Below are positions 10,912-43,405 of a stretch of 64,000 bases of DNA, piece after piece. The notes beneath the pieces are model-generated. The model did not search any database. It was not told the origin of the DNA and worked only from the letters and a program-made list of their open reading frames with translations. The stretch comes from Candidatus Multivorans sp. (GTDB lineage: Bacteria > Acidobacteriota > Thermoanaerobaculia > Multivoradales > Multivoraceae). The first letter of the stretch is position 1. Each line of letters opens with the position of its first letter. The translations under genes were made by a program, and so were the position numbers. Location of the stretch: NCBI GenBank assembly GCA_965224025.1, contig OZ245033.1, forward strand, positions 1,728,001 through 1,792,000, given 5' to 3'.

Positions 10912-11747
10912 TGGGCGTTCTTCGCACGGCCCCGAAGCACCGCCCCACTGGGTGCGCCGGACAGCCATCCGTGCGCCCGATGACGGGCACACGGACTGGT
11001 TCACGGGTGGCGCGGATCCGCGCCACCCGGGTTCTGGCCGGAATCCGGCGCAAAGCGCCGGTCTGGTTCAATGCGGCCATGCTCTTCGTCAGCGTCGCCG
11101 CCTCCCTCCACGCCCAGTCCGGTGTTCCGGACGGCTACGAACTGGTCTACTCCCAGAACTTCACCGACGCGTCGGCACTCGACGACTTCACCTTCAGCGA
11201 CAAGCGGGCGTGGAGCCACGGCGACGAGGGCGGACGCGGCTACCTCGACCTGGAAGGCGGCAGCAAGTACAAGCCGAAGCACCGCTCCCCGCTCAACATC
11301 GCCCTCATCGACGATCTCCTGCTGGCCGACTTCGTCCTCGAGGCCGAGGCCTGGCAGACCGGCCGCGAGTACGGCCACCGGGATCTCAGCCTCTTCTTCG
11401 GATTCGAGGGGCTCAACCGCTACTACTACGCCCACCTGGCCACCCAGCCCGACGACCGCGCCCACAACATCTTCCTCGTCGACAACGCGGACCGCGCGCC
11501 CATGGGCCTAATCCCCGACCAGGGCGTCGATTGGGGCCGCGGCTGGAAGAGGGTGCGCGTCGAGCGCCAGGACGGCGCGTTGCGGGTCTACTTCGACGGC
11601 GAGAAGCAACCGACGGTCTCTACCGATCGCGACCCGCTCGGCTGGGGCCGCGTCGGCTTCGGCTCGTTCGACGACACCGGCCGCTTCAGCAAGGTCCGGA
11701 TCTGGGCGCCGGAGACGCGGAAGGCAGCGATGTCGGCGTTCGAGTAG
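10911..11747 (+). CDS. Secreted concanavalin-A-like / DUF1080-like protein (start uncertain: 10911, 10980 or later)
   Basis: Signal-like MLFVSVAASLHAQ, beta-rich body, C-terminal GRVGFGSFDDTGRFSKVRIW. Confidence 0.6.
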   Translation: MGVLRTAPKHRPTGCAGQPSVRPMTGTRTGSRVARIRATRVLAGIRRKAPVWFNAAMLFVSVAASLHAQSGVPDGYELVYSQNFTDASALDDFTFSDKRAWSHGDEGGRGYLDLEGGSKYKPKHRSPLNIALIDDLLLADFVLEAEAWQTGREYGHRDLSLFFGFEGLNRYYYAHLATQPDDRAHNIFLVDNADRAPMGLIPDQGVDWGRGWKRVRVERQDGALRVYFDGEKQPTVSTDRDPLGWGRVGFGSFDDTGRFSKVRIWAPETRKAAMSAFE

Positions 11748-25016: not shown

Positions 25017-25110
25017 GAACTTGGGCCGCAAGAACTGGGTGCGCCGGCCTCTGGGCGTTCTGCCGCGCTGGAGCCGGGCCACGTCATCAGCCTGAGGGTT
25101 CGCATCGACA

Positions 25111-38618: not shown

Positions 38619-38622
<4 letters not shown>
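34696..38622 (+). CDS. Planctomycete-type cytochrome c / DUF1549 / DUF1553 (PSD1) protein
   Basis: [73 protein letters not shown]-terminal [10 protein letters not shown]. Confidence 0.92.
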
Positions 38623-40037
<1,415 letters not shown>

Positions 40038-40210
40038 GGCGGCGGCGGACACCCGCCTGAGTCGGGACACCGTCCTGTGGCGGAGGCTCACTCGGCTGGC
40101 AGCCGTGACTTCGGTTCGCTTCCTGGTATTCCCGGAAGTGCCGGTGGGCGACTGGGACTCTCCACCCTTTAGCAAGTGTGTTTTGGGGAGGCTGCTGCGG
40201 GTCAGGGAGG

Positions 40211-41464
40211 TCATGCGACCTGGGCATGGCATCGCTTGTTGGGGTCGAAGAGAGTTCGGTCTCGGAGCATGGCGCAGGCGACGCCGAGGAGTCGGTCGAC
40301 GAGTTGTCTGATGGCGCGTCCGTGCGTCTTTCCCTGGGCTTTCATGGCGTCGTACTTGGCGCGGCTGATCGGGTCATGCTCGATGGCGACTCGTCCCCAG
40401 TGATAGACGGCGTCGCTGAGGTGTTCGTTGGCGGCGAGTCGTCGCATGACGATGAGCTTCTTGCCGGACTTGACGGTCACCGGCGCCACTCCGCAGAGGC
40501 AACGCAGTGCCTCGTGGTCTCTGCGGCCCAGGCTTTGATCGGCCTCGGAGAGCAGGGTGGCGAGGCCGACCTTGCCGAGTCCGGGCAGCGACCTGAGGAT
40601 GGCGGCGTCGCTCGGCTTAGGGGAGTCGTCGTCGTTTTCCCGTTGGGCCGGGGCCTCGAGTGCGCGGGTCATCCGCTCCAGCCGCTTGTCGGCGTCGGCG
40701 AGTTGGCGGCAGACGGTGTCGAGCACCGGCCGGAGGAGTCCTATGTGTTCGACGGCGGCCTTAACGGTGTCCGGGGAAACGGCGATCGGCTCGGCCCGCA
40801 GTTGATCGCGCAGTTGGGCGGAGGTCAGGCGCCGGATGCGGTGTTCCTTGAGCAGTTTGGCGAGCGTGGCTTCGCGCAGCCGTCGAGCCTTGCCGGGGGT
40901 CGGCGCCAGTCGCCACAAGGCCAGCGCGAAGGGCGCCGACACCTCGTTCTTGACCACGGCGAGAAACTGCGGGTAGTAGCGCCAGAGCTGGTCGCGGACC
41001 TGGTTCTCCAGGCGGTTCTTCTGGTTGACCAACTGCTTGCGGGCGCGGGACACCTCGCGCAGCATGACGATGGCGGCATCGGATGGTTGCACGCGGTTCA
41101 GGCACTCGGGGTCGGTGCGAAGCGCGGCGGCGAGCACCCGTGCATCGCGGCGGTCATCCTTGGCGCCGGCGACGGAGAAGCGGTCCCTGAAGCGGTCGAG
41201 CTGCTTGGGGTTGATCGAATGGACGGCGAAACCCCGCTCCAGGAGAGTCTCGACCACCGGTCCGTGCGGCACCTCGATGGCGACGCCGATCTCGTCCGGA
41301 GACGTCGGTCGGGTATGTCCAAGGAGCCAGTCGGCCATGGCGGCAAGTCCCTTGCCGCTGTGGTCGAACGCCCGCTCCCCCCTCACCTTGCCGTCCCGAT
41401 CCAGCACACACACGTGGTGGGTCTCGGACCCCCAGTCCACGCCGACGAACCACGTCCTGGTCAT
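40211..41464 (-). CDS. IS110-family (DEDD) recombinase/transposase
   Basis: FVGVDWGS, VAIEVP, AKDDRRDA form the RuvC-like DEDD; LRSLPGLG and GVAPVTVKSGK carry the Tnp serine; GGAGG-like RBS upstream of ATG 41464. Confidence 0.95.
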   Translation of the reverse strand: MTRTWFVGVDWGSETHHVCVLDRDGKVRGERAFDHSGKGLAAMADWLLGHTRPTSPDEIGVAIEVPHGPVVETLLERGFAVHSINPKQLDRFRDRFSVAGAKDDRRDARVLAAALRTDPECLNRVQPSDAAIVMLREVSRARKQLVNQKNRLENQVRDQLWRYYPQFLAVVKNEVSAPFALALWRLAPTPGKARRLREATLAKLLKEHRIRRLTSAQLRDQLRAEPIAVSPDTVKAAVEHIGLLRPVLDTVCRQLADADKRLERMTRALEAPAQRENDDDSPKPSDAAILRSLPGLGKVGLATLLSEADQSLGRRDHEALRCLCGVAPVTVKSGKKLIVMRRLAANEHLSDAVYHWGRVAIEHDPISRAKYDAMKAQGKTHGRAIRQLVDRLLGVACAMLRDRTLFDPNKRCHAQVA

Positions 41465-41504
41465 CTCGTCCTCCTTCTCCCTTGCGGTAGTGTTGCCTGG
41501 TCGG

Positions 41505-41655
41505 CATGCCGCGTTGCCTGCCCGTACCTGTACTGGTGCTCTAAGGCACTGACTCTCCACTGGGCGTCCAACGCGGCGAAGCAGCCAGGGCACGGGTCCC
41601 AGCCAGGTGCTCGAAGCACAGTGCGCCGGTGGTCGCTCCTGGCTGCTTGCCGACC
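41505..41655 (-). ncRNA. Predicted IS110 bridge RNA (target-binding and donor-binding loops)
   Basis: Two stem/internal-loop/hairpin modules (stems 41579-41589 with 41638-41648, and 41508-41516 with 41569-41577). The loops carry matches to the flanking target and to the element ends. Confidence 0.85.
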
Positions 41656-41895
41656 TTCCTTCAGTGACTCCGGCAGGCCGGAAACGAAACCGACCGGCGG
41701 TCCCGGCTGCGGAAGCTGCCGGTCCCGCGGAAAACGGCAGACCGTTTCCCGCCGGACCTTGGAAAACCGGCAAGCCGGTTTCCCACAGCTACCGCAGCCG
41801 CGACGGCTACTGGTCGATTCCACCTCTCTCAACGACCCACCAGAATCCACCCGAGAAAGGTACAGGTGCGCCGGCGTCCCCGCCGGCATCCGCCC

Positions 41896-41935
41896 CTGGG
41901 AACGCGGGCATCCTGCCCGCATCCGCCGAAGGCGG
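41896..41935 (+). repeat. REP-like palindromic repeat (adjacent to a second, IS110-split copy)
   Basis: CTGGGAACGCGGGCATCCTGCCCGCATCCGCCGAAGGCGG with a GCGGGCA/TGCCCGC hairpin. Confidence 0.75.
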
Positions 41936-41951
41936 AATCCGGAGCCCTGCC

Positions 41952-43405
41952 GTGGCAGTCGTGGCCGCGCTCTGTGCGACGGTCGGCGCAACCCCCATCG
42001 CAGCGCAGACGGACGACGAAACCCCCAGCTACTACGGGATGTCTGGCCGGTGATTCAGCAGCGGTGCCAGGGCTGCCACCAGCCGGCGCAGTTGGGTGGT
42101 GAGCTGAACCTGACGAGCTTCGACGGGCTGGCCGCGGGTGGGATGGGCGGGCCGGCGTTCGTCGCCGGGAAGCCGGACGAAAGCCGGATGCTGAAGATGC
42201 TCCGAGGCGAGATCGAACCGGCGATGCCCATGCGGGCCAAGCCCCTGGCGGAGGCGGAGGTTGCCGCGATCAGCGACTGGATAGCGGCCGGGGCCGCCGA
42301 CGACACGCCGGGGGAGATGCGCCTCGGCGCGCCGGCCGGGCCGATCGTCTACCACCAGCCGCCGGTGATCACGGCGGTCGCCTACTCGGCTGACGGCGAG
42401 TGGCTGGCGGTGTCGGGGAATCGAGAGGTCCTGCTTCACCGGCGCTCGGAGGTCGGAAACGGTGACAGCCTGGAGGCCCGGTTCAGCAGCGTTTCCGAGC
42501 GCATCCAGGGGCTCGCGTTCCTGCGCAACGGACGGCTGATCGCGACCGGCGGCACACCCGCGCGCTTCGGCGAGATCCAGATCTGGGACGTCGACGACCG
42601 GAAGCTCCGTGTCTCGACCACGGTTTGCTACGACACCCTGTTCGGCCTCGCCATCTCGCCCGACGAGCGCCGGCTCGCGGTCGGCTGCGCGGACAACACG
42701 GTGCGCATCCACCAAGCGACCAGCGGCCGCGAATTGCTGCGGATGAACCACCACGAGAACTGGGTGCTCGGGGTCGTCTTCGGCGGCGACGGCAGGCGCA
42801 TCGTCTCCGTCGGCCGCGACCGCGCCGCCAAGCTGATCGACGCGAACAGCGGCGCCTTCGTCGAGAACATCAACCTGCTGCGCGGCGAACTCGCCGCGAT
42901 CGTCCGCAACCCCAGGATCGAAGCCGTCGTCATCGGCGGCGAAGACCGCGTGCCCTACTACTACAGGATGGACCGCGCCCGGAAGATGCTGATCGTCGAC
43001 GACTCGACCCTGGTGCGGGAGTTCGAGCGCCAGGACGGCGAGATCTTCGCGCTCGCCGTCGACCCGCGCGGCGACCGTCTCGCGGTCGGCGGCGCCGCCA
43101 AGGCGGTGCCGATCTACGACCTCGAAACCGGCGAGCGGACCGCGACCGCGTCCGGCCACAGCGCCGGCATCTACACCTTGGCCTTCGACCCCACCGGCGC
43201 CGAACTCGCTACCGCCGGGTTCGACGGCTCGCTTCGGCTCTACCGCGCCGCCGACGGCGAACTGCTGCACGAGTTCGTGCCGGTACCGCTCGAAGGCGGT
43301 CTCGAGGGAGAGACCCGAGTGGCGCGGTCTCGCGCCACTCGCGAACCGGTCCGAGCGCCCCTCACCGGGCGCTCGGATGGCACGACCGCCGGAGGAGCAC
43401 CGTGA
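41952..43405 (+). CDS. Planctomycete cytochrome c + WD40-repeat protein; 1-nt frameshift near 42034, start uncertain
   Basis: Signal-like VAVVAALCATVGATPIAAQ..PSYY in one frame; RDVWPVIQQRCQGCH (CxxCH) and WD40 repeats (GEIQIWD, HENWVLGV, LATAGFDGSLRLY) in the next. Confidence 0.75.

Follow-up and report, generated by a model that had tools for sequence, protein, structure and literature searches.

An IS110-group insertion sequence of Candidatus Multivorans with a predicted bridge RNA that spells its own ends and landing site

Introduction

IS621, an insertion sequence (IS) of Escherichia coli, targets repeated extragenic palindrome (REP) elements. Its recombinase works with a bispecific bridge RNA that reads target DNA with one internal loop and donor DNA with another. 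According to Durrant 2024 (PMC11208160), the donor and target loops share one design, in which left guides read the bottom strand, right guides read the top strand and each pairing takes in the core; the same paper gives predicted bridge RNAs for 85.7% of IS110-group elements and cites Tobes & Pareja on IS elements in REPs. Hiraizumi 2024 (PMC11208158) numbers the target loop ahead of the donor loop and describes handshake guides, which are the two bases 3' of each right guide and which, once strands have been exchanged, base-pair with the other DNA at its positions 6-7. The IS621 structure in that work also accounts for the strict T at position 9, since this second base of the core is read by the main-chain amide of G63. 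In the tools published by Durrant 2024 and Perry et al. 2025, positions 8-9 stay CT, or GT. Here we describe an insertion sequence of the IS110 group found in a window of 64,000 nucleotides (the whole stretch of DNA analysed, from Candidatus Multivorans sp., assembly GCA_965224025.1, contig OZ245033.1, positions 1,728,001 to 1,792,000 of the forward strand). The element occupies window positions 40155-41866 on the minus strand and is 1712 bp long, including a copy of its CC core at both ends. We conclude from its sequence, its copies and its relatives that it is very probably an intact and recently active element that moves by bridge-RNA-guided recombination.

Results

Guides of the predicted bridge RNA match the element ends and the insertion site

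The element, its right end and the two flanks of its insertion site are as follows.

40155-41866, minus strand: whole element, with core copies at 40155-40156 and 41865-41866 and boundaries taken from own-genome copies with the same ends
40157-40210, minus strand: right end, 54 nt, non-coding, finishing ..AAAGGGTGGAGAGT ahead of the core (from sequence reading, own-genome junctions and the ends of relatives)
41867-41887, minus strand: left target flank, with CCGGCGCA at 41867-41874 overlapping the 3' arm of a REP-like hairpin GCCGGC-N6-GCCGGC (41870-41887)
40151-40154, minus strand: right target flank, CAGT

The tips of the element read CCTGTACC.. and ..GGAGAGTCC. Reading by eye (no formal inverted-repeat search was made) found no long inverted repeats at the termini, and there is no duplication beyond the CC core. 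The element has the architecture of the IS110 group, specifically a long left end (402 nt, which is unusually long), a short right end (54 nt) and a structured RNA upstream of the gene. The parts of this predicted RNA are listed below.

41499-41655, minus strand: bridge RNA core, 157 nt, an outer helix around the target-binding and donor-binding stem-loops (from the fold and compensatory changes)
41579-41648, minus strand: target-binding loop (5' loop), with an 11-bp basal stem, an internal loop and the apical hairpin GUGCU-UCG-AGCAC
41620-41629, minus strand: left target guide, RNA CCGGCGCAC then U, equal to top-strand CCGGCGCA-C of the target
41598-41603, minus strand: right target guide, RNA GCUGGG, complementary to top-strand CC-CAG(C/T)
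41596-41597, minus strand: target-loop handshake guide, RNA AC, complementary to donor positions 6-7 (the GT of ..GAGT-CC)
41508-41577, minus strand: donor-binding loop (3' loop), with a 9-bp basal stem, an internal loop and the apical hairpin GUGC-CUUAGA-GCAC
41550-41560, minus strand: left donor guide, RNA GUGGAGAGUC then A, equal to the right-end terminus plus the first core C
41527-41533, minus strand: right donor guide, RNA GUACAGG, the complement of CC-TGTAC, in which the core runs into the left-end start
41523-41526, minus strand: donor-loop handshake guide, RNA UACG, whose first base U pairs with target position 7 (A)

The four guides are exact copies or complements of the sequences that they would read. 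In the target loop, the basal stem pairs 41579-41589 with 41638-41648 and encloses the hairpin GTGCT-CGA-AGCAC (plus strand). Here the 9 nt GTGCGCCGG at 41621-41629 are identical to the flank at 41866-41874, and CCCAG at 41598-41602 is the reverse complement of CTGGG at 40152-40156, such that the two target guides together spell the insertion site CCGGCGCA-CC-CAG. In the donor loop, 41508-41516 (GCCGCGTTG) pairs with 41569-41577 (CAACGCGGC) around a GTGC/GCAC hairpin. The 10 nt GACTCTCCAC at 41551-41560 are identical to the element end at 40156-40165, the 7 nt CCTGTAC at 41527-41533 are the reverse complement of GTACAGG at 41860-41866, and the donor guides spell the joined element ends GTGGAGAGT-CC-TGTAC. 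The target-loop handshake AC, which is complementary to the donor, does not match its cognate target (CA), and the donor-loop UACG can pair along its full length with targets of the CGTA variant. Along the RNA the target loop comes first, 5' of the donor loop. Left guides carry top-strand sequence and so pair with the bottom strand, and right guides carry its antisense. The IS621 scheme has six functional segments, and each of them is found here in the correct order and on the correct strand.

The minimum-energy fold of 41495-41660 (minus strand) shows two stem-loops with internal loops and no further ones (z-score -3.55), and none of 200 shuffled sequences folds as well. We aligned the window RNA with 41 distinct relatives (42 sequences). 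In this alignment 95.9% of the cells in the counted stems are paired, and compensatory changes are observed in 22 of the 29 pairs. No shuffle out of 500 reached this compensatory count, and sliding the partners by 1-3 columns left 4 to 12 pairs. Note that the donor-loop pairs proposed by RNAalifold between columns 102-107 and 134-139 are invariant, hence uninformative, and were excluded from the counted structure. The outer helix is predicted in the window copy and is visible by eye in the relatives, where a one-column misalignment kept it out of the count.

A first-pass annotation of this DNA, made from the letters alone, had described an IS110 element at 40155-41866 with a bispecific bridge RNA laid out in two stem-loops as in IS621, a CC core and an intact 417-aa enzyme. 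The element is confirmed by own-genome copies that have these same ends, and the layout is borne out by the fold, the strands, the loop order and the guides. The CC core agrees with the junctions of the own-genome copies, the empty sites and the junctions of relatives, and the enzyme has an intact open reading frame (ORF) with catalytic residues that are kept according to Pfam, the IS621 alignment and the homologues. The stems, hairpins and matches that were reported for both loops (9 nt and 5 nt in the target loop, 10 nt and 7 nt in the donor loop) were all found in place. Two points are added to that description: the right target guide reaches 6 nt (GCUGGG), which is longer than first noted, and the handshake guides had gone unnoted.

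Near-identical copies occupy REP-like sites throughout the genome

The assembly of the host genome (5.14 Mb in 3 contigs) contains 12 full-length copies of the element, two copies with a left-end deletion of ~78 nt, and some fragments. Over all 1712 columns one copy (c1) has the same sequence as the window copy, while c2 departs from it at a single column and c3 at two. The 417-aa ORF is kept in 10 of the 14 near-full copies; the frame is broken by a TT insertion in two copies, and three have no stop within the extracted span. The two copies with the common ~78-nt deletion (c12, C1:3853422-3854994, and c13, C1:598908-600484) have lost it from the structured leader of the left end, and neither has a stop codon inside the extracted span.

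Every copy with the respective end present repeats the same junctions. Specifically, 13 left ends read ..GCCGGCG(C/T)A-CC-TGTACC and 15 right ends read GGAGAGT-CC-C(A/G)G(T/C); counted by pattern across the genome there are 17 left and 16 right junctions. The uninterrupted 13-mer target CCGGCGYACCCAG occurs 44 times in the genome versus ~1.8 expected for an exact 13-mer. Two such empty target sites are located in the window itself, at 10948-10960 (minus strand) and 25035-25047 (minus strand). Among the 44 empty sites, 27 directly adjoin a GCCGGC-N4-8-GCCGGC hairpin, as do 12 of the 17 that are occupied. Since the hairpin stands beside most sites, the landing site is the 3' foot of a REP-like repeat.

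Taken as copies of one another, the near-identical sequences and their intact ORFs read as the picture of recent transposition. It is unlikely that the element is instead a fossil in this genome, looking intact with no current mobility. Such a fossil would be in keeping with the 4 of 14 near-full copies that have a damaged ORF, and with our searches for intermediates: a circle or tandem junction has 0 exact occurrences in the assembly, and among contigs of four runs (X1-X4) over 39700-42300 none joins across the element as an empty-site allele would and none supports a circle. A 350-nt X1 contig spans the right junction (39831-40180) without differences, and short joints in X1-X4, with sides below 40 nt, were set aside. 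A fossil is hard to reconcile with four copies that are identical or differ at no more than 2 columns over 1712 bp while standing at unrelated loci, or with ten intact ORFs and with guides, ends and targets that still match one another.

The crossover core is CC at all junctions

The left and right junctions in this genome share only CC, and it is because of this that the element is taken to be 1712 bp long with a CC core. The empty sites read ..GCGCA-CC-CAG.., with no T. Among relatives, all located right ends finish AGT-CC, all left ends found by pattern start CC-TGTAC, and at the right junction the core can be followed by A, C, G or T. As judged from these junctions the crossover core is CC, both here and in every relative examined. 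The CT core with a near-invariant second T, by which the IS621-type subgroup is recognised, was not observed in this element.

A CT core of the IS621 type, in which the donor would be read ..GAGTC-CT-GTACC and a CT/CC mismatch with the target would be tolerated, is very improbable. In relatives such as L043 the junctions have CCT in common, which makes CT formally possible there, the left target guide of many relatives reads ..CC then U, and Hiraizumi 2024 (PMC11208158) reports hardly any variation at the second T among IS621 and its related orthologues. We nevertheless rejected this core because the base that follows CC at the right junction of relatives can be any of the four. In addition, a mismatched core would leave a mix of CT and CC, yet the left junctions all read CCT and the right junctions all read CCC; this genome has only CC in common between its junctions and no T in its CA-CC-CAG empty sites; and the right guides finish in GG in all loci but one.

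A difference in the recombinase coincides with this core. In a HMMER alignment the loop that follows the catalytic Glu is three residues shorter than that of IS621 (E-V-P-H-G-P versus E-A-T-G-T-Y-M-E-P), and residues E64, P66, G68 and P69 are invariant in the clade. In IS621 the G63 that reads the core T belongs to this loop. We infer that the shorter loop may explain the C at the second core position. It is quite possible, although we propose it only tentatively, that the element represents a large natural clade with a CC core and with left guides that read the first core base only, in which the switch of core is tied to the shortened post-Glu loop. Such a clade would span Acidobacteriota, Alphaproteobacteria, Rhodothermales and others and comprise thousands of proteins at 55-92% identity. 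A literature search with the single phrasing 'CC core' together with IS110 or bridge RNA found no match, which does not show that the core is undescribed, and the published ortholog tables (Durrant 2024 Supplementary Data 2; the 2025 preprint) may list the clade and its core already.

Target guides change together with the flanks in relatives

We analysed 80 loci from species-representative genomes of Candidatus Multivorans, Thermoanaerobaculia, Vicinamibacterales, Rhodothermales, several Alphaproteobacteria and others. Right ends were sought via the left-donor-guide 9-mer of the same locus followed by CC. Both flanks were located in 62 of the 80 loci, which gave 47 unique events and 27 distinct guide pairs, and one event per guide pair was used. 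The 18 loci dropped for one or both ends unlocated were L036-L040, L045, L047, L052, L061, L069, L080 (where the RNA region is disrupted), L085, L086, L091, L094-L097 and L099. Two registers were allowed for the left guide, alike for cognate and control pairings; the Multivorans subclade has no linker base ahead of the apical hairpin.

Over the 27 guide pairs, the left target guide matches its cognate flank at 6.26 of 9 positions versus 3.67 for non-cognate flanks, and the right target guide at 4.00 of 5 versus 1.92. None of 10,000 permutations reached the observed match for either guide. Covariation of the loops with the flanks across homologs, which the first-pass annotation had named as a way to check its reading, is thus seen. 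Overall the donor guides are nearly constant across relatives, where their match to the right-end terminus and the left-end start also holds, and the target guides are hypervariable and track the flanks. This is particularly evident among close relatives that change in step: right target guides ending ..CCGGG go with the flank CCCGG and those ending ..CUGGG with CCCAG, and L021 has a CGTAC guide (the U variant) with a CGTACC flank, as compared to L022-L030 and L041, where a C guide goes with CGCA flanks.

The handshake guides could be followed in 35 guide sets. In 33 of the 35 sets, position 1 of the donor-loop handshake is the Watson-Crick complement of target position 7, a count reached by 0 of 10,000 permutations; in only one set could it pair with the T of its cognate donor. 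The target-loop handshake is AC in 71 of the 80 loci.

It is barely credible that the protein alone reads the REP-like target, with the loop-flank matches left over from shared ancestry and the RNA lacking a guiding role: the target does adjoin a hairpin, a structure that some transposases and REP-associated enzymes recognise, the 2026 ISPpu10 preprint (10.64898/2026.03.19.712850) does report a structural layer in target choice, and the bridge RNA here is a predicted one, yet the guides vary with the flanks over 27 guide pairs and unrelated targets (poly-C, CCTTTTC, CCGGCAC, CCATTTG and others) while the protein stays 55-60% identical and the stems are kept via compensatory changes, and 17 of the 44 empty and 5 of the 17 occupied sites are without a strict hairpin.

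The recombinase is an intact DEDD enzyme

The recombinase gene is located between the RNA and the right end.

40211-41464, minus strand: recombinase (transposase) coding sequence, 417 aa, ATG start, with an AGGAGG ribosome-binding site at 41470-41475

Pfam assigns residues 7-165 to DEDD_Tnp_IS110 (PF01548; 9.6e-35, full profile covered) and the C-terminal Tnp domain to Transposase_20 (PF02371; 2.4e-12). The HMMER alignment matches D10, E64, D104, D107 and S333 to the catalytic residues of IS621, and all five are unchanged among 28 homologues (55-91% identity). Among all chains of the PDB the protein matches only the IS621 and ISCro4 recombinases (7.6e-12 and 4.3e-10). An AlphaFold 2 model with a predicted local distance difference test (pLDDT) score of 85.5 gave the same answer, as places 1-10 of its Foldseek search are all IS621 or ISCro4 chains (E 1.5e-11 to 2.8e-10). 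The target template modelling (TM) scores of this comparison are 0.58-0.61 at ~20% identity, and the best match is IS621 (8wt9/8wt6, E 1.5e-11, TM 0.61).

A longer ORF of 520 aa, starting from a TTG at 41773, overlaps the RNA and was rejected as the gene because the relatives all start at an ATG, GTG or TTG just past an AGGAGG-like site. The 417-aa start is also preferred because the Pfam domain opens at residue 7 of this form. Homologues number in the thousands at 55-60% identity, with a few at 64-98%. In a plasmid search the matches are labelled just 'IS110 family transposase', the best of these having 54.5% identity (Sinorhizobium fredii NGR234).

A proposed cycle and the points that weigh against it

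If the element moves by bridge-RNA-guided recombination, it would excise as a circle in which the right and left ends are joined around one CC. This junction would set a -35-like hexamer of the right end 17 nt from a -10-like hexamer of the left end.

41857-41862, minus strand: putative -10-like hexamer TACCTT at the left-end tip (sequence reading; conserved in relatives)
40170-40175, minus strand: putative -35-like hexamer TTGCTA in the right end, part of a candidate junction promoter and 17 nt from TACCTT only when the ends are joined

Transcription from the junction would run through the left end, and the transcript would hold the 157-nt RNA with its two internal loops. The 3' loop would hold the donor GTGGAGAGT-CC-TGTAC, with the left guide on the bottom strand and the right guide on the top strand, and the 5' loop would hold the target GCCGGCG(C/T)A-CC-CAG(C/T), found at the 3' foot of a REP-like hairpin that recurs genome-wide. 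A tetramer of the 417-aa DEDD/Ser recombinase would exchange strands at the CC core, and the two handshake guides would assist by pairing with the incoming non-cognate strand. Recombination would, in this scheme, depend on the RNA.

In regards to the candidate promoter, the donor site falls within its 17-nt spacer. Of the 32 distinct right-end/left-end pairs from relatives, 31 have a TTG at this offset, which in four cases reads TTGACA. A scan of the integrated copy gave three terminator-like sites versus 1.0 expected. Durrant 2024 (PMC11208160) describes a natural sigma-70 promoter that loses its -35 box when the joined right and left ends are truncated, and by analogy the junction-promoter logic is likely the same here.

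Several observations weigh against this account of the element. The first concerns the core, as both left guides cover only its first base: the left target guide has a U at the second core position, a wobble at best, and the left donor guide has an A there, which is a mismatch. The second concerns expression. The bridge-RNA transcript is a predicted one, the proposed junction promoter of this element agrees with the consensus at only 8 of 12 positions, and a promoter scan of the integrated copy returned 0 sigma-70-like sites. A search of sequencing runs listed no RNA run containing the element's sequence. A search of Rfam with 39500-42500 gave 0 matches at E <= 1, and no covariance model fits the RNA; the structured leader of ~210 nt ahead of the RNA also has no counterpart in IS621. 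A third set of observations concerns the guides. At one position of the left target guide (the C/T variant at 41623) five copies in the genome carry U and the others C, and three copies sit in CGTA sites, two of them with the U guide and one with the C guide. With so few cases, guide variant and flank variant show no significant association, as guide T is carried by 2 of 3 copies with flank T and by 2 of 10 with flank C. The misfit among them is c3, which sits in a CGTA site with a CGCA guide and which implies, on the sequences at hand, a C·A mismatch, action in trans or a later mutation. Among relatives, L082 fits poorly (2 of 9 left, 1 of 5 right), and L060 and L078 match at 1 of 5 positions on the right, where left-end-like sequence comes after the right end. 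Finally, position 2 of the donor-loop handshake pairs in only 12 of the 35 sets.

In both L060 and L078 the right end runs directly into CC-TGTAC.., which is another left-end-like start. Either a tandem copy or what is left of a right-end/left-end junction may account for this arrangement.

The left-end leader, the neighbouring genes and a second IS110-family element

The bridge RNA sits ~210 nt inside the left end, behind a structured leader.

41656-41864, minus strand: long, strongly structured stretch of the left end that separates the bridge RNA from the element tip on its 5' side; fold of the entire left end at z = -7.0

By alignment this leader of ~210 nt is present in Candidatus Multivorans and in relatives of Thermoanaerobaculia, and is absent from Vicinamibacterales and other relatives. 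It contains a module of ~123 nt (41689-41812, left-end positions 55-178) that recurs at 87-89% identity in three or four other places, with copies at L101 2585-2707 and at G000:C1:2474161-2474283, 4048787-4048909 and 1301954-1302035. The module has the shape of an outer stem around two hairpins, GGGAAACCGG..CCGGTTTTCC and GGGAAACGG..CCGTTTTCC, and has no Rfam match. Copies stand next to istB genes of the IS21 type. The one in L101 lies ~50 nt downstream of an IstB_IS21 ORF (1519-2532, E 2.6e-77), and going by its position the IS110 left end seems to have a segment in common with the terminus of an IS21-family element.

The element is intergenic. It stands between a DUF1501 gene at 38619-40037 (plus strand; E 2.9e-143) and a gene at 41999-43405 (plus strand) that codes for a PSCyt1 haem-binding domain followed by WD40 repeats, neither of which is disrupted.

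The same genome also contains a second, unrelated IS110-family element of ~1667 bp (PF01548, 92.5 bits; for example G000:C1 111512-113177). About 14 copies of it are present at 99-100% identity, none of them in the window. Its ends read ..CTAGGAGTGTCC and ..CCATGCAAG, and its right flanks have TGCGC(G/C)GCAG in common.

Discussion

The element is a clean natural case in which four guides, two handshake guides and the core can all be read directly, and the copies, the empty sites and the covariation in relatives each provide a check on how the guides are read. With 44 free landing sites at REP-like hairpins, the element is also a likely source of rearrangements of the host genome. A well-populated clade in which position 9 is a C and the RuvC domain has a different loop gives a direct lead towards a wider choice of targetable sites and towards understanding how the core is read. 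If the proposed reading is true and the clade is active and reprogrammable, cores that end in C would be open to programmable recombination, and the clade would also show how the protein encodes core specificity.

Like IS621, the element lands in a repeat that resembles an extragenic palindrome. ISPpu9 and ISPpu10 of Pseudomonas putida are likewise described as IS110-family elements that are present in many copies and inserted in REPs (PMC12288879, 10.64898/2026.03.19.712850), and the likeness is drawn from the descriptions given in those sources only. Elements of the IS1111 group (seekRNA/bridge RNA) are presented in Durrant 2024 (PMC11208160) as having the same DEDD recombinase family and bispecific RNA guidance. 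In that group, however, the RNA is downstream of the gene, in the right end, and there are long subterminal inverted repeats, whereas here the RNA is upstream of the gene in a left end of 402 nt and the right end has 54 nt. The long left end, the short right end and the position of the RNA upstream of the gene therefore place the element in the IS110 group and not in the IS1111 group. ISCro4 / IS622 (Perry et al. 2025 preprint, 10.1101/2025.05.14.653916; PDB 9T56) has the same family, fold and bridge RNA logic, including handshake guides. It differs in that it has a CT core, is close to IS621 and is an engineered tool active in human cells, in contrast to the distant element described here, which has been read from its sequence.

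The closest comparison is with IS621 itself (Durrant 2024, PMC11208160; Hiraizumi 2024, PMC11208158; PDB 8WT6-8WT9). Both have the same RuvC-like DEDD and Tnp domains, the same catalytic residues and the same fold, and both encode the RNA in the left end, upstream of the gene, with the target loop 5' of the donor loop. In both, the left guides are read on the bottom strand and the right guides on the top strand, two-nucleotide handshake guides lie 3' of the right guides, and the core is a dinucleotide. There are several important differences. The proteins are only ~20% identical, with 417 aa here versus 328 residues in the IS621 chain, and the post-Glu loop has three residues fewer in the present enzyme. 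The core is CC instead of CT, and the left guides match its first base only. The right target guide has 6 nt here (7 nt covary in relatives) versus 4 in wild-type IS621, and an extra structured leader of ~210 nt precedes the RNA; unlike IS621, the element is known from its letters alone. The class of mechanism is already known from these systems, and the points of interest in this element are its CC core, a second core base that the left guides leave unread, and its long structured leader.

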